From: Desulfuromonadales bacterium
GTDB taxonomy: Bacteria; Desulfobacterota; Desulfuromonadia; Desulfuromonadales; JACZKF01
Assembly (NCBI GenBank): GCA_041677125.1
Contig: JBAYQP010000005.1
Location: forward strand, 23,007-87,006
Reading direction: 5' to 3'
DNA: 64,000 bases
The translations under genes and the position numbers were made by a program. This document shows, piece after piece, positions 19,580-36,291 of the stretch. The notes beneath the pieces are model-generated. The model was not told where the DNA came from. It searched no databases and was given only the letters and a program-made list of their open reading frames with translations. Numbering within the stretch: position 1 is the stretch's first letter; the number at the start of each line of letters is the position of its first letter.

Positions 19580-22500
19580 TCAGGCGGCTCCCTGCAGCTT
19601 GTTGCGCTGGAAGCTCTGGTTCAAGGAGGCATCAATGACACACTCGTAGTCTTCAATGCGGGCGACCAGCCGGCCGTCGGCCGGATCGACGAAATCGATA
19701 TCGGCCGTCGCCTTGCTCTCCTGCTGACGGGTGACGCGGATGCGGATTTCGCACCCCGCCGCCGGGAAGACCTCCCGATACTGGCGGTAGCGGCCGGCGA
19801 AAACGGGCAGGGAACCGGCCTGAAACCGCTCAAAGCTCCAAAGGATCATCATCTGGAAGCTGCTGTCCAGGGCCAGCGGGTCGGCGAGCCAGCTGTTGCG
19901 CAGCGGTTGGGCGATCCAATCGGCGGGCGACGGCGCCGGTTTCACCCGGGCGGCTATCCCCTCTTTGCCGCAACCGGCAACCTCCTCGATACCGTGGAAA
20001 TCCGGGCCGTGGAAGAGTCGCTCGGGGCGATAAATCTGGGCGGCATCCAGCGGATAGGGAGAGAGTTCCAGGCGCTCGGCCGCAGCTTTGCCCTCGGGCA
20101 GGCGGCCGGCAAGAACAATCTTCGCCCGCGCGTGCACAAAGGGCTGGGCAATGCCGTCGCCACCGGAAAGCTCCACCGGTACGACGTGGAAGCCGCCGCT
20201 TTTGAAGGCCTTGCCGGTCATGACCTGCAACGTGTGCCGGTGGCCTTCGAGCAGAGTGACGCCCTTGAGGAGGCGCAGATCGTTGAAGCCATGGAAGCGC
20301 AGCCCCGGGTTGTTGTGAATGGCGCCGTGCGCCATCCATTCGATGATCATCGCCATCGGCAGAACCGCCTTCTTGTCCATCACATGCGAGCGCAGGAAGG
20401 GATACTGCTCCACCGTCAGATCGAGATCGAAGGCCTTGGAAATGCAGGCGTTGGCGGCCACCGGGGCAGCCCCCTCGATATGGGCTCCGGCCTTGGCGCC
20501 GGCAATGACCAGTTCGACGGGACCGCCCGGCGCGGTGGCCAACTCGCGCAGCAGATAGTCGGCGCCGGCGGCCAAATCGATGATTTCCACCCCCTCGGCG
20601 GCGAAGATCTTCTTCAGCGCCGGGGTGACCATGCCGCCGTCCCACGGCCCCCAGTTCAGCGACACCACCCGGCAATCCGGCCGGCGGCGCGCCTCCAACT
20701 GGGCCCATTTGTTCAGCACCTCGTTGGCGACGGCGTAGTCGATCTGTCCGATGCGGCCGAAGCGGCCGGTGGAGGAGGAGAAAAGAGCGAGAAATTTCAG
20801 CTCGTCCTCGCCGGCGGCGGCAAGCAGGGCGCGCAGACCGGCGACTTTGGTGGCGTAGACGCCGGCAAACTGCTCGATGGTTTTATCCTCGATGCGGCGG
20901 TCGGCGAGCACTCCGGCGCCGTGCACGATGCCGCGCACCGGACCGTATGCGGCGCGCACCGCGGCAAAGGCCTTCTCGACGGCGAGGGAATCGCGCAGAT
21001 CGACGGGGCGGTAGACGGCGACGCCCCCCGCCGCCTCGATACGCCGCAGGGTGGCGCGGATTTCCCGGTCGGCGACAATGCGCCGGTAGCGCGCCTCGAT
21101 TTCGCGCGGTTTGAGGGGTGCGGACGCTTGGGCGACCACCCCTTTTTTGATCTCCCCTTCCCCGGTCAAACCGGTCAGCCAGGCGGCTTCTTCCGCCTCG
21201 GGAGCGGGCGTGCGGCCGAGAAGGACCAGAGTCGGCCGGCACGCCGCCGCCATGGCGACAGCGATTTCGGCGGTAACTCCGCGAGCGCCGCCACTGATGA
21301 CGACGACATCGCCGGCGGCAATGGGCAGCGGCAACGCCTCGCCGGCCAGGGGGGCGTCGGTGAGCTTCAGGGTGTGCAGTCCACGGGCCGATACTCCCAC
21401 TTCCAGAGGCCCATCGAGGAGCAGTTCGGCGACAATCGTTTCCGCCGATCCCTCGCCGGCATCGGCGGCGAGATCGAGGGCTTTGCAATGCAGCTTCGGC
21501 CATTCGAGAGCAGCGGTCTTGACCAGTCCGGCGAGCCCGCCGGAGAGGGGATCGCCCGGTTCTTCGCCGGGTGGAAGACCAAAACAGCCGTTGAGCCGGG
21601 CAATGCCGGCGAGAAGCGCTGTGCCGCTGGCGGCGGCGGCGCACAGCCCCGGCCCGGCCAGCTGCAGCAGGCGGAAAGCCTGTTGCAAAGAGGCGTCGCT
21701 GGTTCCGGCTTCCGGCGTCAACAGTATGAGACCGACCAGTTCGGCCGGCGGCGCAAGGGCGTCCAGCTGCGCCGGGTCGATCCGCACCGGATTGAGCCGG
21801 CGGGCGGTCAGCGCGGCGCAGATGTCGCCGGCAAGAGCGGAGCCGTCGTCGCCGACCCAGATCGTCGCGCCGGCGGGAAGTTCCAGCGCGGGACGATCCC
21901 CCCGCCCCTGCAGCGGCGCCACCTTGAGCAGCTTGCGGTCGATGCAGGCCGCGCGGGGCGCGCTATCGACGGCGGTTTCGGCGGCGGGCGACGGCCCGGC
22001 GCCGGTGACACTGGCGAGAAAATCGACGATCTGCCGCACCGTCTGCAAGGTGCCGAGGTGTTCCGGACGCACGGCGGGCGCACCGGGCAATTCTTCCTGC
22101 AAAGCGGAGAGAATCTCCACCCGCTTGATGGAATCGATACCCAGATCGGCGTCGAGAGCCATGTCGAGTTCGAGCATCTCCACCGGATAGCCGGTCTTGG
22201 CGGCGATCACCGCCAGCAGAGTGCGGGCGACGGTGTCGCGCGCCAGCGGCGCCGCTGTCGGCTTCTCCGGTTCGGCGGGCGGCTCCGGCCGGCGGCCGCC
22301 GGCGGCGAGAAAATCGACGATCTGGCCGAGGGTCTGCAAAGTGCCGAGATGTTCGGGACGCACGGCCGGCGCTTCCGGCAGTTGCTCCTGCACGGCGGAG
22401 AGGATCTCCACCCGCTTGATCGAATCGATGCCCAGATCGGTATCCAGCGCCATTTCGAGTTCGAGCATCTCCACCGGATAGCCGGTCTTCTCGGCGATGA

Positions 22501-25500
22501 CCGCCAGCAGGACGGCGGCGATCCGCCCGCCCGCCAGGGGAAGCGACGCCGGCGATGCAGCGGCGGCCTGTTGCGCCGAGCCAGCGCCAAGGTGCGCAAC
22601 AATCTGGCCGAGGGTCTGCAAGACGCCGAGGTGCTCGGGACGAATGGCCGGCGCTTCCGGCAGTTGCTCCTGCACGGCGGAGAGAATCTCCACCCGCTTG
22701 ATCGAATCGATGCCCAGATCGGTATCGAGGGCCATATCGAGGTCGAGCATCTCCACCGGATAGCCGGTCTTCTCGGCGATAACCGCCAGCAGGACTTCGG
22801 CGATCCTTTCGCCGGCCACCGGCGCCGCTGCGGGGGCGCCGACCGTTGCCGGCTGACCGTCGCCGAGGTGCTCGACGATCTGGCCGAGGGTCTGCAGGAC
22901 GCCGAGATGCTCCGGGCGAATCACCGGTGCTGCCGGCAGCTGCTCCTGCACGGCGGAGAGAATTTCCACCCGCTTGATCGAATCGATGCCAAGATCGGCG
23001 TCCAGGGCCATATCGAGATCGAGCATTTCCACCGGATAGCCGGTCTTCTCGGCGATGACCGCCAGCAGCACCTCCGCCACCTTGCCGTCGGTGGCCGGTT
23101 GGGAAGGAACTCGGTCCGGGGCCGCAGCCGGTTCGGCAAAGGTAGCGGCAAGCGCCGGAGCGGCTGCGAGCGCCGGGGCCGGGGCCGGGTGCGGCGCCTC
23201 GGCGGGAAACGAAGACGCTCCGACGACGGGTCTCGGCGCTGACGGCACGCCGCCCTGGAAGAGCTGACGCTGCTGTTCGATAAGACCGAGCACGGTGCGA
23301 CCGGCCAGTTCCTGCCCTTCGAGAAACTTCTGATGCAATTGCGCCGTCTGCTCCTGCAAGGTCTGCAACGCCTGCATGCTCTGTTGGGTGAGACGCAGCG
23401 CCTCCTGCAAATTGCCGGCGGGCGCGGCCGGGGCATGCGGCGCATCTCCCATATTTGCCATGCCTCCCACTGCTACCGGCGCCTTCACTGCCGCCTCTCC
23501 CGCTTTCTTCGCCACCGGTGGCCGTTTCGGCGGCGGCTGGAAGTGGTTGGCGCCCGAGATCGGCACGGTCATGCCGGGCTTTTTCTTCTCCGGGCGGTTG
23601 GCCAGCGCCGCCGCTTCGGCGTCCCAGCCACGCAGATCGACGGCATGCCCAAGGGCCGCCAGTTGGGCCAGGGTCCGGGCCAGATCGAGGACTCCGGAGC
23701 GCTTGCCCGCCGAAGCGTCAACAGCCAGCGCCTGATGCTCCTGATCGGCGAGGATCGCCCGGACCATTCCGGTCAACCGGCCGCCGGGGCCAGCTTCGAG
23801 AAAGGTGCGAACGCCCGATGCGTAGAGATTTTGGATTTCATCGACGAACGCGACGGGTCGGGCGAGCTGATTGGCAAGCAGTTGTCGGGCCGCATCGGCC
23901 GATGCCGGATAGGCCTCGCCGGTCGTATTGGCAAAAACCGGGATCTTGGCATCGGCAAAGGGAACATCCCGCAGGCGGGCGGCAAAAGGTCCGCTCGCCT
24001 CGGCCACCAGTTCGCTGTGAAAGGCCGCCGCCACCGAAAGTTCCTTGCAGGCGATTCCTTTGCGCCCGAGAATTTCGGCCGCCTTGCGGATTTCCGCGGT
24101 GGCGCCGGAAAGAACCCCCTGCTGTGGCGTGTTGCGGTTGGCGAGAACCAGAGGCAAACCCTCTTCTCCCAGCAGCTTCTCGATCTCGGCCAGAGGCGAC
24201 GAAACCGCCAGCATCGAACCTCTGTCGCCGGCGCCGGCGGCCATCAATTCGCCGCGCAGACGGGAAAGGGCGTGCAGGGCCGGGCGGTCGAAGCGGCCGG
24301 CGGCGCACAGGGCGGTCAGTTCGCCGTAACTGTGGCCGGCAAAAGCGTCGGCGCGCACGCCGAAGGCGGCGAGAACATCGAGGGCGCCGAGGCTGACCGC
24401 GCCGAGGGCCGGCTGGGCGACTTCGGTGGCCTGCAGACGGCGCTCGTTGGCCGATCGCTGCTCGGCGGTGAAGGCCGGCCGGGGGTGGATAAGTTCGCCC
24501 AGGTCGCCCTGCCCCGCCCCGGCATGAACGGCAAAGGCGGCGTCGGCCTCTTGCAGGGCGTTGAGGAATTCGGGGAAATGCAGCGCCAGATCGCGCAGCA
24601 TGCCGGGATATTGCGCCCCCTGACCGGGGAAAAGGATGGCCAGTCCGCCGGCGGCTGCGCCAACGGACAGGAACACGCCGTCGGGGGTGCTCCAACTCCC
24701 TTCGCCGACGTTATTCTCCAGCAGCGCCAGCGCCTTGCGCATCTGCTCCGACGGATTTCCCTGCTTCTTCTCCAGGGTCAGCAGCAATCGGCATGGGTGG
24801 CGCGGATCGAAAGCGGCGCGGCTGGCGTGCGCCGCCACCCGGATATCGCTCCAGGCCGCCGCAGCGGGAAACCGGTTCATGGCGGCGGTCAACGCACCGC
24901 GCTCCTCGCCGCTGAAGGCGAGAATCTGCATGTCCACCGTCGCGTCGGAAGCCGGCTTGTCCCGACGGTATTCCTCCAGCAGGCAATGGAAATTGCTGCC
25001 GCCGAAACCGAGGGCGCTGACCCCGGCGCGGCGCGGATGGTCGCCACGGGGAATCCAGGGGCGGGCTTCGCTGTTGACGTAGAAGGGGGTGCGGCCGGCG
25101 GTGACCGCCTCCAGCGGCTGCTTGACCTTGATCGTCGGCGGCAAAACTTTGTGGTAGAGGGCCATGGTGGCCTTGATCAGTCCGGCGGCGCCAGCGGCCG
25201 CCTTGGTGTGGCCGATCTGCGACTTGACCGAACCGATGGCGCACCACGGCTGGTCCGCTTCGCCGAAAACCGACCGCAGCGCCTTGATCTCGATGGCGTC
25301 GCCGACTTTGGTGCCGGTGCCGTGCGCCTCGACCAGTTCGATGCTGTCGGGCGTAACGCCCGCCTGCTCGTAGGCGCGGCGCAGAGCTTTTTCCTGGCCG
25401 GCGGCGTTCGGCTCGTAGATCGCCGCGCCTCGGCCGTCGCTGGAGGAGCCGATGCCGCGAACCACGGCATAAATGCGATCGCCGTCCCGTTCGGCGTCGG

Positions 25501-26371
25501 CCAGCCGCTTCAGCACGATGATGCCCAGACCCTCGCCGAGGGTGGTGCCGTCGCCTTCGGCATCGAAGGAGCGGGCGTGGCCGGAGGGGGACAGGGCCGG
25601 GGTCTTGCTGAAACAGGTGTACATGAAGATGTCGTTGAAGGTGTCGATGCCGCCGGTCACCACCATGTCCGTCTTCCCCGCCGCCAGTTCAAGAGCAGCC
25701 AGGTTGAGGGCGCTCAGGGAGCTGCCGCAGGCGGCGTCGCAAACGCAATTGGTGCCGCTGAAATTGAAATGCCGGCTGATCCGCCCGGCGACCACGTTGC
25801 CGAGCAGACCGGGGAAGGAGGTCTCCTGCCAGGGGACGTAGGAGTCGCTGATGCGCCGCATGGCGTCTTCGGCGACCGCATCTTCAACGCCGGCTTCTTT
25901 CAGCGCCACGCGCCAGCGCGGATGCCCAAGGCGCGCGCCCAGGGGAATGACCAGTTCGAGAGTGCCGGTAACCCCGAGGATAACGCTGACCCGCTCCCGG
26001 TCGAACTCCTTCTCCGCTCCGTAGCCGGCGTCCTTGAGCGCCTGATCGACCGCCACCAGACCGAGAAGCTGCGAGGTGTCGGTCGCTTCCAGGGCGTTGG
26101 GGAGGATGCCGTATTCGAGCGGATTAAAATCGACGGGGGACAAAAACCCGCCGTGGCGGGCATAGACCTTGTCCGGCGATTTGGGATCGGCATCGAAATA
26201 GTCCTCCGGCCGCCAGTGGCTCGGCGGCACCTCGGTGATGGCATCGATGCCCTGACGGATGTTGGCCCAGTAAGCGCCGACATTCTCCGCGCCGGGAAAC
26301 AGGCAGCCGAGACCGACAATGGCCAAAGCAGAAGACGAGGGCGGGGTTTGCTTTTCGCGGTTTTTTTTCAA
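19580..26371 (-). CDS. pfaA: PfaA-type PUFA/polyketide synthase subunit: KS - AT - 4x ACP - KR - PKS-type DH
   Basis: KS motif 'CDAACGSSLSALNLA' (Cys codon 25729-25727). AT motif 'GHSYGELTAL' (Ser codon 24331-24329). Four 'LGIDSIKRVEILSA' carrier domains. KR Rossmann motif 'VVVISGGARGVTAEIA' (~21.29 kb). DH motif 'LRSHVMDKKAVLP' (~20.38 kb). The proposed start TTG26371 ('MKKNREKQTPPSSSALAIVGLGCLFPG') overlaps the pfaD stop (TTGA), with AAGGAG ~11 nt upstream. The 62 further codons in the track ORF lie inside pfaD. Confidence 0.9.
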   Translation of the reverse strand: MKKNREKQTPPSSSALAIVGLGCLFPGAENVGAYWANIRQGIDAITEVPPSHWRPEDYFDADPKSPDKVYARHGGFLSPVDFNPLEYGILPNALEATDTSQLLGLVAVDQALKDAGYGAEKEFDRERVSVILGVTGTLELVIPLGARLGHPRWRVALKEAGVEDAVAEDAMRRISDSYVPWQETSFPGLLGNVVAGRISRHFNFSGTNCVCDAACGSSLSALNLAALELAAGKTDMVVTGGIDTFNDIFMYTCFSKTPALSPSGHARSFDAEGDGTTLGEGLGIIVLKRLADAERDGDRIYAVVRGIGSSSDGRGAAIYEPNAAGQEKALRRAYEQAGVTPDSIELVEAHGTGTKVGDAIEIKALRSVFGEADQPWCAIGSVKSQIGHTKAAAGAAGLIKATMALYHKVLPPTIKVKQPLEAVTAGRTPFYVNSEARPWIPRGDHPRRAGVSALGFGGSNFHCLLEEYRRDKPASDATVDMQILAFSGEERGALTAAMNRFPAAAAWSDIRVAAHASRAAFDPRHPCRLLLTLEKKQGNPSEQMRKALALLENNVGEGSWSTPDGVFLSVGAAAGGLAILFPGQGAQYPGMLRDLALHFPEFLNALQEADAAFAVHAGAGQGDLGELIHPRPAFTAEQRSANERRLQATEVAQPALGAVSLGALDVLAAFGVRADAFAGHSYGELTALCAAGRFDRPALHALSRLRGELMAAGAGDRGSMLAVSSPLAEIEKLLGEEGLPLVLANRNTPQQGVLSGATAEIRKAAEILGRKGIACKELSVAAAFHSELVAEASGPFAARLRDVPFADAKIPVFANTTGEAYPASADAARQLLANQLARPVAFVDEIQNLYASGVRTFLEAGPGGRLTGMVRAILADQEHQALAVDASAGKRSGVLDLARTLAQLAALGHAVDLRGWDAEAAALANRPEKKKPGMTVPISGANHFQPPPKRPPVAKKAGEAAVKAPVAVGGMANMGDAPHAPAAPAGNLQEALRLTQQSMQALQTLQEQTAQLHQKFLEGQELAGRTVLGLIEQQRQLFQGGVPSAPRPVVGASSFPAEAPHPAPAPALAAAPALAATFAEPAAAPDRVPSQPATDGKVAEVLLAVIAEKTGYPVEMLDLDMALDADLGIDSIKRVEILSAVQEQLPAAPVIRPEHLGVLQTLGQIVEHLGDGQPATVGAPAAAPVAGERIAEVLLAVIAEKTGYPVEMLDLDMALDTDLGIDSIKRVEILSAVQEQLPEAPAIRPEHLGVLQTLGQIVAHLGAGSAQQAAAASPASLPLAGGRIAAVLLAVIAEKTGYPVEMLELEMALDTDLGIDSIKRVEILSAVQEQLPEAPAVRPEHLGTLQTLGQIVDFLAAGGRRPEPPAEPEKPTAAPLARDTVARTLLAVIAAKTGYPVEMLELDMALDADLGIDSIKRVEILSALQEELPGAPAVRPEHLGTLQTVRQIVDFLASVTGAGPSPAAETAVDSAPRAACIDRKLLKVAPLQGRGDRPALELPAGATIWVGDDGSALAGDICAALTARRLNPVRIDPAQLDALAPPAELVGLILLTPEAGTSDASLQQAFRLLQLAGPGLCAAAASGTALLAGIARLNGCFGLPPGEEPGDPLSGGLAGLVKTAALEWPKLHCKALDLAADAGEGSAETIVAELLLDGPLEVGVSARGLHTLKLTDAPLAGEALPLPIAAGDVVVISGGARGVTAEIAVAMAAACRPTLVLLGRTPAPEAEEAAWLTGLTGEGEIKKGVVAQASAPLKPREIEARYRRIVADREIRATLRRIEAAGGVAVYRPVDLRDSLAVEKAFAAVRAAYGPVRGIVHGAGVLADRRIEDKTIEQFAGVYATKVAGLRALLAAAGEDELKFLALFSSSTGRFGRIGQIDYAVANEVLNKWAQLEARRRPDCRVVSLNWGPWDGGMVTPALKKIFAAEGVEIIDLAAGADYLLRELATAPGGPVELVIAGAKAGAHIEGAAPVAANACISKAFDLDLTVEQYPFLRSHVMDKKAVLPMAMIIEWMAHGAIHNNPGLRFHGFNDLRLLKGVTLLEGHRHTLQVMTGKAFKSGGFHVVPVELSGGDGIAQPFVHARAKIVLAGRLPEGKAAAERLELSPYPLDAAQIYRPERLFHGPDFHGIEEVAGCGKEGIAARVKPAPSPADWIAQPLRNSWLADPLALDSSFQMMILWSFERFQAGSLPVFAGRYRQYREVFPAAGCEIRIRVTRQQESKATADIDFVDPADGRLVARIEDYECVIDASLNQSFQRNKLQGAA
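22010..23085. repeat. Four tandem ~276-291-bp coding repeats (the ACP domains of pfaA)
   Basis: The near-identical block '...gagcatctccaccggatagccggtctt...' / 'atctccacccgcttgatcgaatcgatgcc' recurs. The phosphopantetheine Ser codons fall at ~22131, 22422, 22704 and 22980. Confidence 0.9.
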
Positions 26372-27975
26372 CGGAGGCGCTCCTTGATCTTTTCCATCTG
26401 CAGGGGGGCGATCAGGGCCGCCATATCGGCGATCCGCCCTCCCTGAAGGCGCAACTGATTGGCCCGGACGAGCAGGGCGGCGCCGAAAAGAATATTGTAG
26501 GCAATGGTGGCGACGCGGCGCTGGCCGACATCCTCGAGAAAGGAGCCGCGCACCCATTCGTTAAAGGCGCCCATGGCCGGACCGCACCAGATCTGATAAT
26601 CCATGCGCCGGTCCGCCTCCCCCCGGTTGGCCCAGACCGGCGACTGACCCAGGTACCAGCGGAAAACGAGCGCCATTTTATGTCTGGGATCGGCTTCGGC
26701 CCGGACGATCTGGCGGGGATCGCGCTGTTCGAAATAGCCGCGCGTCTCGGCCCAGACGGTTTCCAGCGGGCGCTGGAAGAAAGTCTTTTCCAGTTTCTGC
26801 CGTTCGGCCGCCGGCAATTGGTCAAGGCTGCCGTGCGCCCGGTACAATTCATAGAGTTTGCCCGCGCGCATGGAGAACATCGTACCACGCTTGAGCACCT
26901 GAACGTGCACGCCCATCTCGAACATGTCGCCCGAGGGCGCCATGGTGATGTCCGCCTGCCGGGTCTCGGCAAGCATCCGCCGCACTTCGTCGCAGGTGCC
27001 CGACTCGATACAGGCCTGGTTGACCGAACCGGTCACCAGATAATCGGCGCCCATGGCAAAAACCGCCGCCGCCGCCGCAGGCGTGGCGATTCCGCCGCCG
27101 AGGCCGATGCGCGGTTGCTGCTCGAAACGGTATTGCTCCTGCATCCGGTCGCGCAGCGTCTGAATCGTCGGCAGCAGCGCCAGAGCCGGCCGATTGTCGG
27201 TATGGCCGCCGCTGTCCGCCTCGGCGGTGATGTCCTGCGCCATCGGGATCAGCGCCGCCAGCTCCGCCTGTTGCACGGTGAGATCGCCGGCGGCGACCAA
27301 TTCGCGCAGCAGACGTTCCGGTGGCGGGGCGAGAAATTTGGCCGCCACCTCCTCGCGGGAGATCTTGGCGATCAGCCGGTTCGGGGCGACGATCCGCCCG
27401 GCGGCATCGCGGCCGATGCCGTGCGTGCGGTAGCGCACCACCGCCGGGGTCAGATCGAGAAAGGCCGAAGCTTCCACCAGCCGAACCTTGCGCCGCAGGT
27501 ACAGATCGACCAGGGCATTCTCCAGATCCGGCTCATTCGGGCTGTGAATCAGGTTGACCCCGAAAGGAAATCCGTCCCCGAGACGCTGCAATTGCTCGAC
27601 CGCCCCTTCCACTTCGCCGAGCGTCAAGCCAGCGGCGCCGAAACAGCCGAGCATCCCCTCCCGGCCGAGAGCCTCGACCATGGCGACAGAGCTGATCCCT
27701 TTGGCCATCGAACCGCCGACATAGGCGAAGCGCAGCCCGTGCTCGGCACAGAAAGCGGCATCCCCCAACCGTTGCAAGGGACAGGCGAGGATGGTTCCGG
27801 CATCCGGTCCGGGCTCCTGCCGAAAGACGGGTATTCCGTCCACCAGCGTGAAGTAGAGCGACTTTTCGATCCGGCGCAAAGCATCCAGCGCAGAAGAAAA
27901 GTCCCCCATTTTGTCAGGCGTGACGATCAAATGATTTTCCTTGCTTGGCGAATCGGCTGAATCTGCTGGCGCCAC
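26368..27975 (-). CDS. pfaD: PfaD-type trans-acting enoyl reductase (FMN-dependent, nitronate monooxygenase/2-nitropropane dioxygenase fold)
   Basis: 'FAYVGGSMAKGISSVAMVEALGREGMLGCFGAAGL', 'FGVNLIHSP', 'ITAEADSGGHTD' and the C-terminal 'YQIWCGPAMGAFNEW' are characteristic of PfaD. The start is uncertain: GTG27975 (3 nt after the ispH stop) or ATG27909. Confidence 0.85.
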   Translation of the reverse strand: MAPADSADSPSKENHLIVTPDKMGDFSSALDALRRIEKSLYFTLVDGIPVFRQEPGPDAGTILACPLQRLGDAAFCAEHGLRFAYVGGSMAKGISSVAMVEALGREGMLGCFGAAGLTLGEVEGAVEQLQRLGDGFPFGVNLIHSPNEPDLENALVDLYLRRKVRLVEASAFLDLTPAVVRYRTHGIGRDAAGRIVAPNRLIAKISREEVAAKFLAPPPERLLRELVAAGDLTVQQAELAALIPMAQDITAEADSGGHTDNRPALALLPTIQTLRDRMQEQYRFEQQPRIGLGGGIATPAAAAAVFAMGADYLVTGSVNQACIESGTCDEVRRMLAETRQADITMAPSGDMFEMGVHVQVLKRGTMFSMRAGKLYELYRAHGSLDQLPAAERQKLEKTFFQRPLETVWAETRGYFEQRDPRQIVRAEADPRHKMALVFRWYLGQSPVWANRGEADRRMDYQIWCGPAMGAFNEWVRGSFLEDVGQRRVATIAYNILFGAALLVRANQLRLQGGRIADMAALIAPLQMEKIKERLR

Positions 27976-27978
27976 GGG

Positions 27979-28830
27979 TCAAAGGGCGGCGAGAGCCCGC
28001 TGGATCTCGTCGATCACCTTCTGCGGGGTGGAGGCGCCGGCGGTGAGGCCGATCCTTGAATAATTCTTCAGCTCCGCCAGCGGCAGTTCGGATACCTTTT
28101 CCACATGCAACACCGGGGTTCCCTGGGCGGCGACCACCTGGGCCAGACGCTTGGTGTTGCTGCTTTCGTAACCGCCGGCCACGATAACGAAGTCGACCTC
28201 GCGGGCAATACGGATCGCTTCTTCCTGGCGCTGCTTGGTGGCGCTGCAGATCGTCTGCAAGACGACCAGGTTGAAATCGCCTCTTTCTTGCAGATCCCGG
28301 ACCAAATCCGAAAAAATTTCTTTATCCTGCGTGGTCTGGGCCGCCAGGCAATACTCCTGGCCCGGCTGGAGCGTCAGGGCGGCCAGCGCCTGCCGCGAAT
28401 TGAAAACGTACGTGGGGCCGCCGGCATAGCTCAACAGGGCCTTCACCTCCGGATGCGTTTCATCCCCGTACAACAAAAGCGTGCGCCCGCCGGCGGTATG
28501 CTTCTCGATGCGCAAACACGCATTGGTCACCTTGGGACAGGTGGCGTCGACAATGGTCACCCCCCGCCGGTGCAGATCCTCGCGCACATTCCGGGCGATG
28601 CCGTGGGCGCGGATGACCACGGTCGCCCCGGACGGCGCCTCGGCCGGAGAAGTCAGGGTGGTAACGCCCCGCCGGGCATATTCCTCGACAACCTGCGGGT
28701 TGTGAATGATCGAACCTAGAATATAGATCGATCCGGGCTCAGTCTCTCTGGCAATCAGATGTTCGAGTTTATAGAGGGCAAGATCGACGCCCATGCAGAA
28801 ACCGGCCTTTTTGGCCCGTACAATTTCCAT
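27979..28830 (-). CDS. ispH: 4-hydroxy-3-methylbut-2-enyl diphosphate reductase (IspH/LytB), cluster-associated second copy
   Basis: ATG28830 ('MEIVRAKKAGFCMGV'). All three cluster Cys are present ('GFCMGV', 'DATCPKV', 'TICSAT'), as are 'IIHN', 'AHG', 'THPEV', 'AQTT', 'SSNT' and 'GASTP'. A second ispH lies at 47625..48470. Confidence 0.85.
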   Translation of the reverse strand: MEIVRAKKAGFCMGVDLALYKLEHLIARETEPGSIYILGSIIHNPQVVEEYARRGVTTLTSPAEAPSGATVVIRAHGIARNVREDLHRRGVTIVDATCPKVTNACLRIEKHTAGGRTLLLYGDETHPEVKALLSYAGGPTYVFNSRQALAALTLQPGQEYCLAAQTTQDKEIFSDLVRDLQERGDFNLVVLQTICSATKQRQEEAIRIAREVDFVIVAGGYESSNTKRLAQVVAAQGTPVLHVEKVSELPLAELKNYSRIGLTAGASTPQKVIDEIQRALAAL

Positions 28831-28910: not shown

Positions 28911-28939
28911 ATTATAGGGATTAACCGGGAGTATGCCAA
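28911..28939 (-). promoter_or_regulatory. Sigma-70-type promoter reading into ispH-pfa-ole
   Basis: On the minus strand: TTGGCA (28939-28934), 17 nt, TATAAT (28916-28911). This is ~80 nt upstream of ATG28830, and the tRNA-Val terminator lies upstream of it. Confidence 0.55.
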
Positions 28940-28965
28940 GGTTTAATTTGTCGGTTTAATTTGTC
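28940..28965 (-). promoter_or_regulatory. Perfect tandem 13-bp direct repeat abutting the -35 element (candidate activator site)
   Basis: Minus strand reads GACAAATTAAACC GACAAATTAAACC, immediately followed by TTGGCA. It is an AT-rich island in GC-rich DNA. Confidence 0.5.
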
Positions 28966-29028
28966 GCGCCGCTCCCACCCGCACGTGAGCGGTGCGGGGC
29001 GGAGCAGATCGGCCGCGCTTGTTCCCGC

Positions 29029-29060
29029 AAAAAAGGCACCCAGGAGAAATCCTGAGTGCC
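29029..29060 (-). terminator. Rho-independent terminator downstream of tRNA-Val
   Basis: Minus strand: GGCACTCAGG-atttct-CCTGGGTGCC followed by TTTTTT. Confidence 0.8.
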
Positions 29061-29068
29061 TGAATATC

Positions 29069-29143
29069 TGGTGGGCGATGTTGGGATTGAACCAACGACC
29101 CCTCGCGTGTGAGGCGAGTGCTCTCCCGCTGAGCTAATCGCCC
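29069..29143 (-). tRNA. tRNA-Val (anticodon CAC), CCA encoded
   Basis: Reverse complement GGGCGATTAGCTCAGCGGGAGAGCACTCGCCTCACACGCGAGGGGTCGTTGGTTCAATCCCAACATCGCCCACCA folds as a 75-nt cloverleaf. Acceptor GGGCGAT/ATCGCCC; anticodon stem CTCGC/GCGAG with loop CT-CAC-AC; T arm GTTGG-TTCAATC-CCAAC. Confidence 0.95.
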
Positions 29144-29222: not shown

Positions 29223-30188
29223 TCAGCCGCAGGGGCCGTCCTTGTCGCGGACCACCATTTCCCGCAAAACATCCTCCACCGCCGTGTAGGGGTCGAGTTC
29301 GCGGCGGGCGATGGCCTGAATGGTTTGGCTGAGACGGTTGCCTTCGCTGATGCGTTCGTGGACCTGATGGAAAAGGCGCTCCTTGAGCAGTTCGGTGAAA
29401 CGCAGGGCGCTCTTGTTCTCTTCGAAACGCGTCAGCCGTCCGGAGCGGCAGAGATGCGCGCGGTGCGCCGCGATTTTTTCCATCAATTCGGCGATGCCGG
29501 CGTGCTTCTGCGCCACCGTCTTCACCACTGGCGGCCACCAGTCCCCTTCCTCCGGATGATTCATTTCGATCATCGTCCGCAGATCGCGGACCGCCCGATC
29601 GGCATCGGCGCGATCGGCCTTGTTGACCACGAAGACGTCGCCGATCTCGAGAATGCCCGCCTTGATCGCCTGGATATCGTCGCCCAGACCGGGGACGGTC
29701 ACCACCAGGGACGTATGGGCGGTGCGCACGATCTCCACTTCATCCTGCCCGACGCCGACCGTTTCGATGAGGATGACTTCCCAGCCCATGGCGTCGAAGA
29801 CAGTGGCGATATCGTTGGTCGAATGCGAGATGCCGCCAAGATGGCCGCGGGTGCCGAGAGAGCGGATGAACACCCCTTCGTCGCAGGCATGGCGGTTCAT
29901 GCGGATGCGGTCGCCGAGAATGGCGCCACCGGTGAAGGGACTGGTCGGATCGACGGCGATGACGGCGACGGTTTGGCCCTGCTGCCGGAAGCTCTCAATC
30001 AGTTTGTCGGTCAGGGTCGATTTGCCGGCCCCCGGCGGTCCGGTGATGCCGACAATATAAGCGCGGCCAGTATGCGGATAGAGCTTCTTCAACTCACCGA
30101 CGGCGCTCGGCATCCCATCATCAATGTCCCGCATCAAACGGGCCGCCGAGCGGATATCGCCCGCGAGTATTTTTTCCGCCAGCGACAT
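29223..30188 (-). CDS. meaB: Methylmalonyl-CoA mutase-associated G-protein chaperone (MeaB/ArgK family)
   Basis: P-loop 'GITGPPGAGKST', 'AVIAVDPTSPFTGGAILGDRIRM' and 'VVNKADR', typical of the MeaB/ArgK SIMIBI GTPases. Confidence 0.85.
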   Translation of the reverse strand: MSLAEKILAGDIRSAARLMRDIDDGMPSAVGELKKLYPHTGRAYIVGITGPPGAGKSTLTDKLIESFRQQGQTVAVIAVDPTSPFTGGAILGDRIRMNRHACDEGVFIRSLGTRGHLGGISHSTNDIATVFDAMGWEVILIETVGVGQDEVEIVRTAHTSLVVTVPGLGDDIQAIKAGILEIGDVFVVNKADRADADRAVRDLRTMIEMNHPEEGDWWPPVVKTVAQKHAGIAELMEKIAAHRAHLCRSGRLTRFEENKSALRFTELLKERLFHQVHERISEGNRLSQTIQAIARRELDPYTAVEDVLREMVVRDKDGPCG

Positions 30189-30192
30189 TTTT

Positions 30193-30600
30193 CTACGCCC
30201 GCGGGTGAATGTTGTCGCGCACCCATTGATTGATGGACTCGGTGCTCGCGCCGGGAGTGAAAATTTCCAGGACGCCGGCCTCTTTCAGCCCAGGGATATC
30301 GTCTTCGGGGATGATGCCGCCGCCGAATACGGGAACGTCCTGCGCCCCTTTTTCCTTCAGCAACTGCACGACCCGGGGGAACAGGGTATTGTGGGCGCCG
30401 GAGAGGATGGAAAGGGTCACCGCGTCCACGTCCTCCTGAATGGCGGTGTTGACGATCTGCTCCGGCGTCTGCCGCAGCCCGGTGTAGATCACCTCGAATC
30501 CGGCATCGCGAAAGGCGCGCGCCACAATTTTAGCGCCCCGGTCATGCCCGTCCAGGCCCGGTTTGGCTACCAGCAATCTAAGTTTTCTTGCCATGGTCAT
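30193..30600 (-). CDS. Cobalamin-binding small subunit/domain of methylmalonyl-CoA-mutase-type isomerase
   Basis: 135 aa. The B12-binding signature '[16 protein letters not shown]' (DxHxxG) and 'SILSGAH' (SxL...GG) are present. There is no TIM-barrel substrate domain in this ORF or elsewhere in the window. Confidence 0.85.
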
Positions 30601-30684
30601 CTCCTTTGAATCATCGGAATGGAAATCGAATTAACAGGAGGCACAGGATGTTCAGGATAGGTAAGCCGTTTTATTTTGTTCGGA

Positions 30685-31227
30685 TCAGGATTCAATCCCC
30701 CTGCGCGCCGGTTGGCCGGCGTTGAAATAATGCTTGATATCGCGCATTTCGGTGACCAGATCGGCTAGTTCGATGATTTCCGGACGGGCGCCGCGACCGG
30801 TAAGGACGAGTTCGGTATGCGGCGCTTTGTTTCGGACCAGGTCCACGGCGTCGGCCAGCGCAATGAGACCAAGATCGACCGCGCCGTTGATTTCGTCGAG
30901 GATAACCAGATCATATTCGCCGCCGCCGACCAGTTGCCGGGCGCGGGTAAAGGCCGCCTGCGCCATTTGCGTATCGACGGGATCGATGTGGCCGGGGATG
31001 ACAAAGGTGTCGCGTCCGACCTGTTCGAGGGTCAGTTCCGGGGCCAGACGCCGGGAGGAAACGAGTTCGCTGTAATCTTGCCCCTTCAGGAACTGCATGA
31101 CATAAACGCGCATGCCGTGCCCGACGGCGCGCAGCGCCAGCCCGAGAGCGGCGGTGGTCTTCCCTTTGCCGTTGCCAGTATAAACCTGCACCAGCCCTTT
31201 GGTTAATTTTGCAGCCTGCGGTTCCAT
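30685..31227 (-). CDS. cobO: Cob(I)yrinic acid a,c-diamide / cob(I)alamin adenosyltransferase (CobO/BtuR type)
   Basis: 'GLVQVYTGNGKGKTTAALGLALRAVGHGMRVYVMQFLKG' and 'DLVILDE' are CobA/CobO/BtuR hallmarks. Confidence 0.85.
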   Translation of the reverse strand: MEPQAAKLTKGLVQVYTGNGKGKTTAALGLALRAVGHGMRVYVMQFLKGQDYSELVSSRRLAPELTLEQVGRDTFVIPGHIDPVDTQMAQAAFTRARQLVGGGEYDLVILDEINGAVDLGLIALADAVDLVRNKAPHTELVLTGRGARPEIIELADLVTEMRDIKHYFNAGQPARRGIES

Positions 31228-31958: not shown

Positions 31959-32723
31959 CTATTTGACATCTCCCTGGATGCCGACCCGGACCAGTTCGAG
32001 AGGGACCTCCTTGCCGCTGGCGGCGAGGGCCTGTTTGGCGATCTGCACCAGCCCGGAGCAGCAGGGAACCTCCATGAAAACCACGGCCAGGGATTTGATC
32101 TCGTTCTGCGCCAGGATGGCGGTGAGTTTTTCCAGATAGGCGCGGCCGTCGTCGAGCTTCGGGCAACCGATGAGCAGCGCCTTGCCTTGCAGCAGATCGC
32201 GGTGGAAATCCGCATAAGCGAAGGCGGCGCAGTCGGCGGCAAGCAGCAGGTCGGCCTGCGTGAGGAAAGGGGCGCTCGGCGGCACCAGATGCATCTGCAC
32301 CGGCCACTGGCGCAGCTCAGAGGGACGCCGTTCCGTCTCCCCCGCCCCCGCGGTCGCCGCCGGGCGCTCCGTCGTCATCACCTGCGCCGACGGGCAGCCG
32401 CCGGCGGGAGCGAAGCTTTTCACCTGGGCCGAAGGGCAACCGCCGCCGTGGGCGGGCGCTGCCGGGTGCAGCGGCGTCTTATTTTCGGCGTGCAGATGCT
32501 TCTCCACCGCTTCTTCATCAAATCCGTCGGCATCGCGTTTTTCGATGAGAATGGCATCCTTCGGGCAGTGCCCAAGGCAGGCGCCGAGACCGTCGCAGAG
32601 ATTATCGGCGAGCAGTTTCGCCTTGCCGTTCACGATCTTGATCGCCCCCTCGGCGCAAGCCGGAACGCACAGACCGCAGCCGTCGCACTTTTCTTCATCA
32701 ATCGTCACAATTTCACGGATCAT
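31959..32723 (-). CDS. 4Fe-4S dicluster domain protein of unknown function
   Basis: N-terminal 'CDGCGLCVPACAEGAI...CDGLGACLGHCP' (2x[4Fe-4S]). Internal duplicated 'GGCPSAQV' motifs. C-terminal Cys pair 'MEVPCCSG'. Confidence 0.75.
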   Translation of the reverse strand: MIREIVTIDEEKCDGCGLCVPACAEGAIKIVNGKAKLLADNLCDGLGACLGHCPKDAILIEKRDADGFDEEAVEKHLHAENKTPLHPAAPAHGGGCPSAQVKSFAPAGGCPSAQVMTTERPAATAGAGETERRPSELRQWPVQMHLVPPSAPFLTQADLLLAADCAAFAYADFHRDLLQGKALLIGCPKLDDGRAYLEKLTAILAQNEIKSLAVVFMEVPCCSGLVQIAKQALAASGKEVPLELVRVGIQGDVK

Positions 32724-32814
32724 GATTTTCTCCTCAATTGAATGGTTTTCGTATGTCGGGATTAAACCTGGAATGTTTGGGGTTGCTTGCGCGGCGTCAA
32801 TCGGCGTTTTTCCC

Positions 32815-33201
32815 CTAGAAAAGATAATGCCAGAGAAGATCGAGCCGCCCCCGCAGCAGCAGGCGGCGGCCGGAAAAGCGCATGATTTCCTTCACCTTCT
32901 CCCGATGCCCCGGCCGATAGCAATGAACATGACAGTGCTTGCAGGTCGGCTTGGGATCAAGCGGGCATTTGCGGCGCCGGGCTATGGCGTAAGCCAGAAA
33001 CTCACGGCACTCGGTGCAGCAGCGGTACCGTTCCAGACCGATTGTCGCCAGATCGGCATTGGCAGGCAACGGTAATTTTTCCCCACTGTGGCGGGCCCGG
33101 CAGAAAACGGCGGTAAACCAGGCCAGAACCCGAAGGTCCTTGCTTTCTTTCCGGGTGAGGGGCGCGGGCGTCGTTGAAGTCATCTTTTCCATGCTTGGCA
33201 T
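32815..33201 (-). CDS. Nitrous-oxide-stimulated-promoter family protein (YgbA-like)
   Basis: 'CCTECREFLAYAIARRRKCPLDPKPTCKHCHVHCYRPGHREKVKEIMRFSGRRLL' matches the YgbA pattern (CP..KP.C..C.VHCY.P..RE..K.IMR). Confidence 0.75.
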   Translation of the reverse strand: MPSMEKMTSTTPAPLTRKESKDLRVLAWFTAVFCRARHSGEKLPLPANADLATIGLERYRCCTECREFLAYAIARRRKCPLDPKPTCKHCHVHCYRPGHREKVKEIMRFSGRRLLLRGRLDLLWHYLF

Positions 33202-33290
33202 CGTAATCGATATTCTCCCGGCAATCCTTGATTGAAGTCAATCCGTTAAAAACGGCGTTAAATTCCGATTTATGTCCGTTTTACGGATAC

Positions 33291-33318
33291 TTGCATCGTC
33301 TTCACAACTTGATATGAT
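33291..33318 (+). promoter_or_regulatory. Candidate promoter for csbD-like gene
   Basis: TTGCAT (33291-33296), 16 nt, TATGAT (33313-33318). It lies 34 nt upstream of ATG33352, whose RBS is AGGAGA. Confidence 0.45.
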
Positions 33319-33351
33319 TTTATTGGCACCTTTCCCAGAAAGGAGAAAACC

Positions 33352-33549
33352 ATGAACAAAGAAGAATTGAAAGGCAAATGGAACCAGCTCAAGGGTTCGA
33401 TCAAGTCGCGCTGGGGCAAGCTTTCCGACGACGATATCCAGAGGATCGAAGGGGAAAAGGATAAACTGGTCGGCAAGGTTCAGGAAAAATACGGCCGCAG
33501 CCGGGAAGAGGCGGAAAAGGAAGTCGATGATTTCACCACTCGACATTAA
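33352..33549 (+). CDS. CsbD-family general stress protein
   Basis: 'ELKGKWNQLKGSIKSRWGKLSDDDIQRIEGEKDKLVGKVQEKYG' is the CsbD signature. Confidence 0.85.
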   Translation: MNKEELKGKWNQLKGSIKSRWGKLSDDDIQRIEGEKDKLVGKVQEKYGRSREEAEKEVDDFTTRH

Positions 33550-33574
33550 GACTTATGCCGTTAACGCGCAATGG

Positions 33575-33606
33575 AAAGGGCGATTCGAGAGAACCGCCCT
33601 TTTTTC
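33575..33606 (+). terminator. Rho-independent terminator after csbD-like gene
   Basis: AAAGGGCG-attcgagagaac-CGCCCTTT followed by a T run (33600-33605). Confidence 0.75.
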
Positions 33607-33696
33607 GCGTCCCGGTCCCCTCTTGCGGTTTCCCAGCGCCCCCCAGACAAGATTAAAATGCAAGGTTCCGGTTTTCCGGCGCATACTTCGACGGAT

Positions 33697-33724
33697 TTGA
33701 CATGTAAGATTGGAGCGATAAAGT
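33697..33724 (+). promoter_or_regulatory. Candidate promoter for DUF1328 gene
   Basis: TTGACA (33697-33702), 16 nt, TAAAGT (33719-33724). Confidence 0.4.
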
Positions 33725-33850
33725 GAGGCTAAGAATGATGCCTTGATCCGGTCCTTTTCCGCCGCCTTCCGGGGCAAAAAGAGAAAAGGGCGCAAAGTTG
33801 GACAAGGAGAAGGAAAGCAAACCCGCATTACAGATTGGGAGGTGAAACAT

Positions 33851-34021
33851 ATGTTATCCTGGGCACTTGGCTTTTTCATCGTCGCCATTATCGCTGCCAT
33901 CTTCGGGTTCGGCGGCATCGCGGCGGGCGCGACCAATATCGCGCAGTTCCTGTTCTGGTTGTTCGTCATTCTCTTTATCGTTTCCCTGGTTGTCGGGCTG
34001 GTCCGCCGGCCCCGGGTTTGA
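33851..34021 (+). CDS. DUF1328/UPF0391 small membrane protein (YtjA-like)
   Basis: ATG33851 follows a GGGAGGTG RBS. '[47 protein letters not shown]' is typical of this family. The longer track ORF from 33743 adds a Lys/Arg-rich non-membrane leader. Confidence 0.8.
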
Positions 34022-34025
34022 GGCA

Positions 34026-34057
34026 AAGAACCGCGCCCCGCTTGGGGCGCGGTTCTT
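34026..34057. terminator. Bidirectional terminator hairpin between DUF1328 (+) and otsB (-)
   Basis: AAGAACCGCGCCCC-gctt-GGGGCGCGGTTCTT, a perfect 14-bp stem with U-rich flanks on both strands. Confidence 0.8.
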
Positions 34058-34067
34058 CTTTAGCCCT

Positions 34068-34925
34068 TCAGCCGCCAAGTCGCTGCGCCAGCGTTGCAAG
34101 GAAAAGTCGCACCTCTTCCGTATCCTCGAGAGCATAATCGGCATAACTCGGTCGCGGCTCGTCGCGGACGACGATGCCGACGCCACGCCCCTGCAAGGCG
34201 CGAAAGGCGTCCTCGTCGGTGAGATCGTCGCCCAGGTAGAAGGGCACGAAGTCGGCGTCATCGAGCTCAAGCTGGCGCATGAGAAAAAAGACCGCCCGCC
34301 CCTTGTCCCAGTCGATATCCGGACGCAGTTCGAAAACCTTCTTGCCGCCCGTCCGGCGCAGACCGGGCGTTGCCGCCCGCACCCCATCGACGACCGCCTG
34401 CACCCGCGCTTCGGCTTTCTCGCCGCCCTCGCGAAAATGCACCGCGACGGCAAACTTCTTACGCTCCACCCGGACGCCGGCGATGCCGGACAATCGCTCT
34501 TGCAGCGCCTGTTCGGCGCGGTCGAGGGCCGGCAGACATTCGCTCCCCTGGCGGAAGGCGAGATCGCCGCCCGCCGGCCCTTGAATATCGAAACCATGGC
34601 TGCCGGCGTAGGCGATCCCTTCGATCCCGGCCAGCTGCCGCACATCGCGCAAATCGCGGCCGCTGACCAGCGCCACCGGGCAGAGCTCGGCCAGCCGCCG
34701 CACCGTTCGCCGCATTTCGGCGCTCATCAGAGCATCCTGCGGATGGCGCACGATCGGCGTCAGCACGCCATCGTAATCGAGAAACACCGCCGGCCGTTTA
34801 CCATTGAAATGTCCGGCGATTTCGTCCTGACAGGCCAAGGCCGAGGGGAGATCAGCCGTATTGCGGGATTGGGGATGGTTCGATCGCTGGGGCAAAATGT
34901 CCTCCTTTGTTCTCATCTCAGGCAC
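34068..34925 (-). CDS. otsB: Trehalose-6-phosphate phosphatase (HAD superfamily)
   Basis: HAD motif I 'FLDYDGVLTPIV', 'VALVSGRD' and 'FYLGDDLTDEDAF' (motif IV), in an OtsB-like arrangement. Confidence 0.8.
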   Translation of the reverse strand: MPEMRTKEDILPQRSNHPQSRNTADLPSALACQDEIAGHFNGKRPAVFLDYDGVLTPIVRHPQDALMSAEMRRTVRRLAELCPVALVSGRDLRDVRQLAGIEGIAYAGSHGFDIQGPAGGDLAFRQGSECLPALDRAEQALQERLSGIAGVRVERKKFAVAVHFREGGEKAEARVQAVVDGVRAATPGLRRTGGKKVFELRPDIDWDKGRAVFFLMRQLELDDADFVPFYLGDDLTDEDAFRALQGRGVGIVVRDEPRPSYADYALEDTEEVRLFLATLAQRLGG

Positions 34926-35199
34926 CCTTCAAAGAACCCCGGCGCGAAAATCGTCAATTCGTATCCGCCGGGCTCTGCGATTGTAACAGATCGGGGCGCA
35001 GCGGACATCGGCAGAGTCCCCTCGATTTCTCTCTTCGCGAAAAAACCTCCCCGCCCCGGTCATTGACAGGCAACTGTTCTGTGCTATTTGATTAGCTTGC
35101 CTACATACACCTTCATCGCGCGACCGGCACCGGCACGAGGCGGACAATAATCTGCGACTGGTCGAATCCCTGGCCGGACCCCTGCCGCCGGAGCAGCGA

Positions 35200-35652
35200 G
35201 TGCCGAGCATCCTGGGCCATCCGGCGGAAACGGCGCGCCGGAACGAACAGCTTGCAACACTTCTCCATAATATTCCGGCCGATGCGCCCCTGCTGCTGGT
35301 CCACCCCGGCGCCGACTGGCGTGACGACCGCGACGAAACCGCACGCCGGCGGCTGCCCTTGTATCTGCTGGCCGGCGGCTCCGGTCGGGAGGAAAATCTG
35401 CGCCGGGCCGCCCAGGCGGCCGGCGGCGCACTGCTCGCCTGCTTTACGCCGGGATCGGCCCCCTGGTGGCGCGAACGTCTCGGCGCCGATGTCGCCGCCT
35501 GGCTGCGGGAGCCCGACGCCGACTCCTACGCCGACGGCATCCCGCACCGAAGCTCCGGCGATCTCCAGGAACTGCTCCGGCAAACCGTCCCCGCCGTGCG
35601 CCTGCGCAAATGGCTGGCGGCGCGGCCGGCCGACGCCCAGCCGCCCATCTGA
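35200..35652 (+). CDS. Hypothetical protein
   Basis: GTG-initiated ORF with strongly G/C-biased third codon positions, unlike the overlapping frames. I recognised no family. Confidence 0.4.
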   Translation: MPSILGHPAETARRNEQLATLLHNIPADAPLLLVHPGADWRDDRDETARRRLPLYLLAGGSGREENLRRAAQAAGGALLACFTPGSAPWWRERLGADVAAWLREPDADSYADGIPHRSSGDLQELLRQTVPAVRLRKWLAARPADAQPPI

Positions 35653-35777
35653 GATTATAAGCGATCATTCTCTGGCTGGACTCCCCGCCGCCAGCATCTT
35701 TTTGACAAAATGCCTGTGCCAGGTATTTTCATGTCGGGAGGGATCGGGCGAATTCTCAAGAAGAAGGGGGAACGGGA

Positions 35778-36179: not shown

Positions 36180-36291
36180 CGCGCGGTAGGCCTCCCGCCG
36201 GTGCGCCACCTGCAAACTTCCGGAAAACCCACGATTGCCCGGCCACCCGCCCAGCCGACCTTGCGCAGCGGTCTTCCTCCGGACTAGCCGG

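Follow-up and report, generated by a model that had tools for sequence, protein, structure and literature searches.

Type I secondary-lipid (Pfa) gene clusters were defined by Shulse and Allen (2011) in Deltaproteobacteria and Planctomycetes, where they were tied to the C31:9 olefin of Geobacter bemidjiensis and their products were proposed to protect obligate anaerobes against oxygen (PMC3098273). The locus analysed here shares the pfaD-pfaA-pfaBC order, the linked ole genes and the anaerobic Desulfuromonadales host, but the published description contains no ispH (PMC3098273), whereas the present cluster is headed by one, hereafter ispH2. Duplicate IspH genes and paralogues of MEP-pathway genes in lipid or secondary-metabolite clusters are already known (PMC5462960; PMC4550268), and ispH has been documented to cluster with hpnH and shc (PMC5462960). 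Mycobacterium tuberculosis likewise carries two canonical IspH paralogues, LytB1 and LytB2, one of them in a housekeeping context (PMC4550268); unlike that pair, ispH2 forms part of a defined lipid operon and belongs to another IspH sub-lineage. IspH is also coupled to another process in the IspH-UbiA and IspH-RPS1 fusions ("Rosetta stone" IspH), and the logic proposed for the UbiA fusion is a local supply of IPP and DMAPP (PMC4746011). The housekeeping ispH of our organism keeps the cmk-ispH-rpsA order that underlies the IspH-RPS1 fusions, while ispH2 is unfused, its coupling would be operonic and translational, and its partner does not consume prenyl diphosphates. MEP-pathway paralogues occur inside isoprenoid clusters, namely those for hopanoids, carotenoids and terpenoid antibiotics. 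What is new here is an ispH stably built into a non-isoprenoid PUFA/olefin operon, in one lineage. Full-text literature searches pairing pfaD, pfaA, oleABCD or hentriacontanonaene with ispH or lytB returned nothing relevant, and the IspH sequence-network paper makes no mention of hopanoid, polyketide or polyunsaturated contexts (PMC4746011).

The window, by which we mean the whole 64-kb stretch of DNA that was analysed, contains two ispH genes, as the original prediction had stated; both open reading frames and their LYTB matches were confirmed:

27979 to 28830, minus strand: ispH2, pfa-linked IspH/LytB paralogue of 283 amino acids (family profiles; monophyletic clade, bootstrap 100)
47625 to 48470, minus strand: housekeeping ispH, in a Desulfuromonadales clade of its own (gene order pheA-tyrA-aroA-cmk-ispH-rpsA-sppA)

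The ispH2 protein matched Pfam LYTB (PF02401) with 274 bits over residues 3-280 and TIGR00216 with 251.4 bits (cut-off 187.85), which makes it a full-length member of the family. In the PDB it matches Aquifex IspH best (3dnf, E = 1e-43), and its fold is not in doubt. The likely start is the ATG at 28830, because the homologues are also 283 residues long and begin with MEI. The housekeeping protein scored 320 bits against LYTB, and its gene is flanked by cmk (48537-49265) and rpsA (45781-47520), in line with the cmk-ispH-rpsA setting described earlier. The two proteins are 39% identical. Housekeeping IspH sequences of Desulfuromonadales form a large clade of their own, distinct from the pfa-linked one; given this separation and the low identity, an origin of ispH2 as a recent duplicate of the housekeeping gene is ruled out.

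Downstream of ispH2, the genes pfaD, pfaA, pfaBC, oleA, oleB, oleC, oleD and that of a phosphopantetheinyl transferase (PPTase) follow in this order, tightly packed and all on the minus strand:

26368 to 27930, minus strand: pfaD, enoyl reductase of the Pfa synthase, start inferred from relatives (TIGR02814, 644 bits, cut-off 449)
19580 to 26557, minus strand: pfaA, KS-AT-4xACP-KR-DH, maximal open reading frame (domain profiles)
12681 to 19577, minus strand: fused pfaBC with KS-CLF-AT-FabA-type DH domains, the hallmark of Type I secondary-lipid clusters (domain profiles)
11422 to 12552, minus strand: oleA, thiolase-type condensing enzyme (NF006720, 465 bits, cut-off 285)
10532 to 11812, minus strand: oleB, alpha/beta hydrolase, haloalkane-dehalogenase-like, maximal open reading frame (HMM match)
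8877 to 10868, minus strand: oleC, olefin beta-lactone synthetase type, maximal open reading frame (NF006754, 778 bits, cut-off 478)
7873 to 8901, minus strand: oleD, 2-alkyl-3-oxoalkanoate reductase type (NF042422, 439 bits, below the cut-off of 580)
7124 to 8170, minus strand: 4'-phosphopantetheinyl transferase, pfaE-like, maximal open reading frame (HetI/AcpT-type matches)
7008 to 7027, minus strand: terminator-like hairpin after the PPTase gene (terminator scan)

Several of these maximal frames are probably longer than the genes. The true start of pfaA probably overlaps the pfaD stop near 26371, since relatives have a 4-nt overlap of pfaD and pfaA; that of oleB probably lies near 11428, because the HMM match begins at residue 129 at the earliest; and that of oleC is probably near 10529. 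The hairpin at 7008-7027 is likely the end of the unit. The presence of pfaD, pfaA and a fused pfaBC with KS-CLF-AT-DH domains places the cluster among the Type I secondary-lipid clusters. The ole genes were assigned as OleABCD from four contiguous genes in the expected order, with the OleA and OleC subfamily models above their cut-offs; scores against the species-specific equivalog models of OleC and OleD were high but fell short of the cut-offs (677-684 bits for those of OleC).

On the upstream side, the unit is bounded by a tRNA gene and its strong terminator, which are followed by promoter-like signals:

29069 to 29143, minus strand: tRNA-Val(CAC), upstream boundary of the unit (ARAGORN; Rfam tRNA, 67 bits)
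29034 to 29061, minus strand: intrinsic-terminator-like hairpin of 12 pairs with a T run, ending the tRNA transcript (terminator scan)
28941 to 28966, minus strand: tandem 13-nt direct repeat, two copies of CGACAAATTAAAC, abutting the -35 hexamer (read from the sequence)
28911 to 28939, minus strand: sigma-70-type promoter-like site TTGGCA-17-TATAAT (11 of 12 positions matched)

The promoter-like site announced directly ahead of ispH2 was thus found again at 28939-28911, and a leader of 80 nt separates it from the gene. A promoter scan of 4.5 kb gave 2 sites with at least 9/12 matches, against 0.8 expected. The promoter block is nearly identical in the window and in the 81%-identical relative L001, where ispH2 is preceded by the same tRNA-Val, while the surrounding intergenic DNA has diverged. 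The tandem repeat, single-copy in L001, may act as an operator or in the manner of an UP element. When the ispH2 leader and its flanks were searched against Rfam, the tRNA alone was returned, with no riboswitch or leader RNA. Promoter-like sites in the AT-rich loci L002, L003 and L005 were no commoner than in shuffled sequence. By eye only, we spotted a TTTACA...TATAAC block common to L003, L005 and L170.

The junction between ispH2 and pfaD depends on which pfaD start is used. The original prediction had placed the ispH2 stop 3 nt from a pfaD start at GTG27975. This holds as a description of the open reading frames; as the likely pfaD start it does not, GTG27975 being the longest possible start and lacking a Shine-Dalgarno sequence. 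The likely start is TTG27930, preceded by AAGGAAAA, because pfaD of relatives starts at a TTG with AGGAG ahead of it. With that start the spacer becomes:

27931 to 27978, minus strand: ispH2-pfaD spacer of 48 nt, carrying the AAGGAAAA Shine-Dalgarno sequence

A terminator scan of these 48 nt found no terminator-like site, so that the absence of a terminator between the two genes stands, over 48 nt rather than 3, and no promoter-like site was found ahead of pfaD. Across the loci of the clade the spacers measure 0-48 nt. Five loci (L002, L003, L005, L170 and L171) have their ispH stop codon within a TAGGAG Shine-Dalgarno sequence, 6 nt ahead of the TTG of pfaD, and L174 shows a 4-nt overlap of the two genes. 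Judged from gene layout, this overlap of stop and Shine-Dalgarno sequence, or of the genes themselves, is a signature of translational coupling in most relatives. The predicted co-expression of ispH2 with the lipid genes thereby receives good indirect support from adjacency in 12 of 12 loci whose upstream genes differ, spacers of 0-48 nt and the lack of a terminator. The ole genes are probably on the same transcript as ispH2 and pfa; between pfaBC and oleA, a weak terminator-like hairpin (12588-12573) makes a shared ispH2-pfa-ole transcript less certain.

We then compared the arrangement across relatives. Homologues of ispH2 with 58-81% identity are numerous in Desulfuromonadales (Desulfuromusa, Pelovirga and Desulfuromonadaceae MAGs). 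Beyond the window, 11 distinct loci covering all major sub-branches were compared (L001, L002, L003/4, L005/6, L016, L087, L170, L171, L174 and L175). L002 is that of Desulfuromusa kysingii, a named species carrying the ispH2-pfaD arrangement. In all 12 distinct loci (58-100% identity) pfaD lies directly downstream of the clade ispH, intact in 11 and truncated in one, and pfaA and pfaBC follow wherever the contigs extend far enough. The recurrence of the paralogue ahead of pfa, proposed as a check, was therefore observed, and the adjacency is not accidental. In the exceptional locus, L170, pfaD breaks off after about residue 224 with unrelated genes beyond, while ispH2 is intact, which suggests that the gene is valuable on its own. 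The upstream neighbours vary, with at least five different contexts: CobA/B12-binding/MeaB/tRNA-Val in the window and L001, a nitrate reductase and a sigma-54 regulator in L002, purLQF...nadB-SLT-CDP-alcohol transferase in L003-6, L170, L171 and L175, an IS200-type transposase in L174 and yet other genes in L016. The ispH2-pfaD pair therefore stayed joined through several relocations.

This association is restricted to one lineage of sediment bacteria. A scan of species-representative genomes with exact peptide words of the window's PfaD returned at least 80 loci from many phyla, a sample rather than a census that left out known positives such as Desulfuromusa kysingii. Among the matches listed, 68 of the 69 loci with sufficient upstream sequence had no ispH within 6 kb on the pfaD strand, L016 being the sole carrier; the loci without it include those of Geobacter, Geotalea, Pelotalea, Trichlorobacter, Trichloromonas, Planctomycetota, Verrucomicrobiota and Acidobacteriota. 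The view of the paralogue as a general head of pfa/ole clusters fails on these counts, and it can be called the first gene of the pfa/ole unit in a single Desulfuromonadales lineage only. A PfaD tree groups the ispH2-linked proteins in one 13-member subclade, which includes an ispH-free sub-branch (L007, L009, L011 and L013). The most economical history has a single capture and one or more later losses, on a PfaD node whose support is weak. Since this sub-branch and nearly all other Type I clusters do without ispH2, the gene is dispensable for Pfa/Ole chemistry. A metagenome scan with IspH2 gave a single close relative, and its 79 further loci, ordinary ispH genes of at most 50% identity without pfaD, served as outgroup only.

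The origin of ispH2 was traced through its closest sequences. The pfa-linked IspH proteins are monophyletic with a support of 100 (neighbour-joining tree, 100 bootstraps). In a search of 1.8 billion representatives at 50% identity, P0121 alone scored 357 bits, the next representatives reached at most 256 bits (45-50% identity) and the bulk of IspH lay near 40%. The nearest relatives, at 58-63% identity as measured to P0121, P0407 and P0478, come from Desulfovibrionales, Candidatus Deferrimicrobium, Desulfobacteraceae and MAGs, and all three of the loci checked were hopanoid loci. L167 encodes HpnA (481 bits) and HpnI (431 bits), both above their cut-offs, with an HpnB-like gene and ispH-dxs; L172, from Maridesulfovibrio salexigens, has HpnH, an HpnN-like transporter, an aminotransferase and ispH; and L173 has HpnH (540 bits, above cut-off), an HpnN-like gene, an aminotransferase and ispH-dxs. 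The neighbour-joining tree puts pfa-linked and hopanoid-locus IspH together with no H1, SIS or OTH sequence inside, in a 62-member clade of bootstrap 20. From the identity levels, this topology and the lack of other groups inside, the pfa-linked IspH looks like an offshoot of a specialised-lipid IspH lineage. In the sister group at 45-50% identity we observed Dus-ispH with flagellar and chemotaxis neighbours and an ispH-HD fusion beside ddl and kdtA, contexts that look like housekeeping ones. The pfa-linked and hopanoid-locus proteins share sub-lineage, length and active site, and both are encoded by a MEP-pathway gene inside a membrane-lipid cluster; they differ in that the hopanoid-locus gene sits with isoprenoid-lipid genes and ispH2 with polyketide-type PUFA/olefin genes. 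Neither the 64-kb window nor the flanking DNA of the pfa-linked loci contained any hpn, shc or dxs gene.

We next considered the active site, using the residue roles described for IspH (PMC8837944). Both copies in the window keep the equivalents of E. coli C12/C96/C197, H41, H74, H124, E126, Q166, T167, T168, S225, N227 and S269 in the alignment, as claimed for the key residues of both proteins. In ispH2 the [4Fe-4S] ligands are C12, C98 and C195, which are 94-100% conserved in 115 members of the clade. In the same 115 members, the diphosphate pocket (equivalents of H41, H74, H124, Q166, T168, S225, N227 and S269) and the proton-relay residues (equivalents of E126 and T167) are 100% conserved. 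All of this evidence agrees with a product that would still be an HMBPP reductase. At a conservation of 90% or more, only four positions, S40, V48, C105 and S224, set the pfa-linked clade apart from hopanoid-locus IspH, and S40, C105 and S224 are invariant within the pfa-linked clade. None of the four is a universally conserved site, E. coli having Glu, Val, His and Ser. Position 40 is Ser in the pfa-linked clade and Pro in the other groups, and position 48 is Val against Leu in the hopanoid-locus and sister groups. The Cys at position 105 replaces a Gln found in 98-100% of the sequences of other groups; in the outgroup that contains E. coli Gln makes up 76%, and E. coli itself has His. Position 224 is Ser in the pfa-linked clade, Gly in hopanoid-locus IspH, Ala in the housekeeping clade and Ser in E. 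coli, so that S224 brings the SSN loop back to its E. coli state. Cys105 lies seven residues after the cluster ligand C98, and S40 and S224 adjoin diphosphate-binding residues. There is a small chance that the invariant Cys105, S40 and S224 mark an added function.

On this basis, we consider it reasonably probable that ispH2 encodes an HMBPP reductase isozyme of the specialised-lipid lineage, which was captured into the pfa operon and would be co-expressed with it, supplying isoprenoid precursors. Its ancestor would be an IspH lineage that other Desulfobacterota carry in hopanoid loci, often by dxs, and that is taken to boost the supply of IPP and DMAPP for a specialised membrane lipid. After capture, the gene would have become the promoter-proximal cistron of a Type I pfa operon in Desulfuromusa, Pelovirga, Desulfuromonadaceae MAGs and the present organism. 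The promoter at 28939-28911 would drive it as the leading cistron of pfa, probably of pfa-ole, and its translation would immediately precede that of pfaD, coupled to it in most relatives, so that extra HMBPP reductase capacity would be made whenever the PUFA/polyolefin machinery is made. Such an arrangement could serve a co-ordinated remodelling of isoprenoids (hopanoids, quinones) and polyunsaturated membrane lipids, a purpose that we infer along with the enzyme activity and the co-transcription. We prefer this product-supply purpose because of the ancestry of ispH2; the physiological reason that would tie isoprenoid supply to PUFA/olefin synthesis is speculative. The lack of hopanoid genes from the 64-kb window, the Type I clusters that do without ispH2 and the invariant Cys105, for which the isozyme reading does not account, count against it. 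The coupling of isoprenoid flux to membrane remodelling, one of the two roles offered by the original prediction, fits the hopanoid loci in which the nearest IspH relatives are found. The other, recruitment as a reductase for a lipid intermediate of the allylic-alcohol kind, lacks support: the diphosphate pocket is invariant in 115 members, and no more than four positions distinguish the clade from hopanoid-locus IspH.

The same features were weighed against other explanations. ispH2 might be a stress isozyme that backs up or replaces the oxygen- and ROS-labile housekeeping IspH when oxygen or cold induces pfa/ole, without feeding any particular product. The canonical active site would suit such a role, as would the existence of non-redundant paralogues elsewhere (M. 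tuberculosis LytB1/LytB2; PMC4550268), the proposed protection of obligate anaerobes against oxygen by Type I pfa products (PMC3098273) and the invariant C105, S40 and S224 near the cluster-binding helix and the diphosphate loops. Descent from hopanoid-locus genes points instead to a supply linked to a product, and most relatives with the same pfa cluster lack ispH2; we consider this explanation unlikely. That lack, in 68 of the 69 other pfaD loci listed and in one sub-branch of the same PfaD subclade, together with the restriction to one lineage, would also be expected if a hopanoid-type ispH had landed upstream of pfaD by chance and been kept because the promoter of the operon and the translation signals of pfaD came to lie in or before it, with no metabolic coupling; the pfaD Shine-Dalgarno sequence overlaps the ispH stop, which would make a clean loss difficult. 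However, catalytic residues strictly kept over 58-100% identity indicate that the enzyme itself was selected and is not a mere spacer, the pair moved as a unit among at least five genomic contexts, and ispH2 is intact where pfaD is truncated (L170), so that passive retention appears quite unlikely.

A change of function has still less in its favour. We give little chance to a role beyond HMBPP reduction, whether as a redox- or Fe-S-sensing first cistron gating an oxygen-sensitive PUFA/olefin pathway or as an enzyme with a new diphosphate-bearing substrate. Smaller yet is the chance that the [4Fe-4S] site has been turned to a non-HMBPP substrate, such as an allylic or alkynyl Pfa/Ole intermediate that it would reductively dehydroxylate or hydrate, or that the protein is an Fe-S redox sensor or a partner of PfaD. 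IspH is known to be promiscuous, with acetylene hydration and isoprene/isoamylene formation (PMC8837944; PMC4864966), and the conserved position at the head of a non-isoprenoid cluster and the invariant, clade-specific Cys105 would be compatible with such a shift. Against it, every residue that binds the HMBPP diphosphate is invariant, as are E126 and T167, identity to hopanoid-locus IspH is about 60%, and homologous pfa/ole clusters, including those of C31:9 producers, have no ispH2. Acyl-ACP and beta-lactone intermediates carry no diphosphate. A diphosphate-free substrate is unlikely because it would not explain the constraint on the pocket.

If ispH2 is truly co-regulated with the lipid genes, the synthesis of hopanoids or other isoprenoids and that of polyunsaturated lipids would belong to a single programme of membrane remodelling in anaerobes that reduce metals and sulfur, which would bear on the interpretation of sediment lipid biomarkers and on the engineering of olefin production. 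If the gene merely hitch-hiked, the locus would illustrate operon capture neatly, with little further meaning. With its two differently controlled IspH isozymes, such a genome offers a natural system for the study of IspH specialisation.

Codon 105 of ispH2, the pfa-linked ispH copy, encodes a cysteine (window 28516-28518, minus strand) that is invariant across the pfa-linked IspH clade and is placed seven residues past the [4Fe-4S] cluster ligand C98. The same position is occupied by glutamine at 98-100% in the hopanoid-locus, housekeeping and sister IspH groups, and by histidine in E. coli. A different ispH locus, L088, encodes at 602-2071 a 489-aa IspH carrying an HD-domain phosphohydrolase fused at its C-terminal end; this fusion gene adjoins ddl and a Kdo transferase gene.

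Upstream of ispH2, a 13-nt A/T-rich element, CGACAAATTAAAC, is present as a perfect tandem duplication (two copies, window 28941-28966, minus strand) directly abutting the -35 hexamer of the promoter-like site. Only a single copy is found in L001, the locus of an 81%-identical relative, whereas the window has two. This tandem element may act as an UP element or as a binding site for a regulator. The purL-context loci, in which ispH2 lies downstream of purLQF...nadB, have other upstream DNA: a conserved block, TGAAAATTGTTTACATTA...TTTTTTATAACTTCT.GCGTTAC, found about 190-210 nt 5' of ispH2 in L003 and L005 and also seen in L170, is unlike the promoter common to the window and L001, and is a possible promoter or operator.

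Between pfaBC and oleA, which lie 128 nt apart, we observed a weak terminator-like hairpin (window 12573-12588, minus strand) with 5 GC pairs and a T-rich tail; the pfa and ole genes may in part be transcribed separately. At 4871-6767 on the plus strand, genes for a HisKA_3 histidine kinase and a LuxR/GerE-type response regulator converge on the end of the pfa-ole-PPTase unit, and this pair is a candidate for its regulation.

On the other side, upstream of the tRNA-Val gene, the window contains a group of cobalamin-related genes:

29223-31227, minus strand: MeaB, a stand-alone B12-binding domain protein and a CobA/BtuR adenosyltransferase, upstream of the tRNA gene
36613-38268, minus strand: B12-binding radical SAM protein with DUF4070, beyond the MeaB/CobA-BtuR genes

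The order of the first three is identical in the window and L001. Several long ORFs (210-483 aa) at 300-2427 and 32260-36319 had no match in Pfam, and some of these putative ORFs overlap on opposite strands.

In L170 (10001-11546), one long metagenomic contig, pfaD ends after about residue 224 while ispH2 is intact, and beyond the shortened pfaD lie an MFS fragment and IMPDH; ispH2 seems to have been retained here while the pfa cluster was lost. At L174, from a Desulfuromonadaceae MAG, an IS200/IS605-type Y1 transposase (13-672) lies about 0.8 kb 5' of ispH2-pfaD, a position that would fit with the ispH2-pfa unit being mobile.
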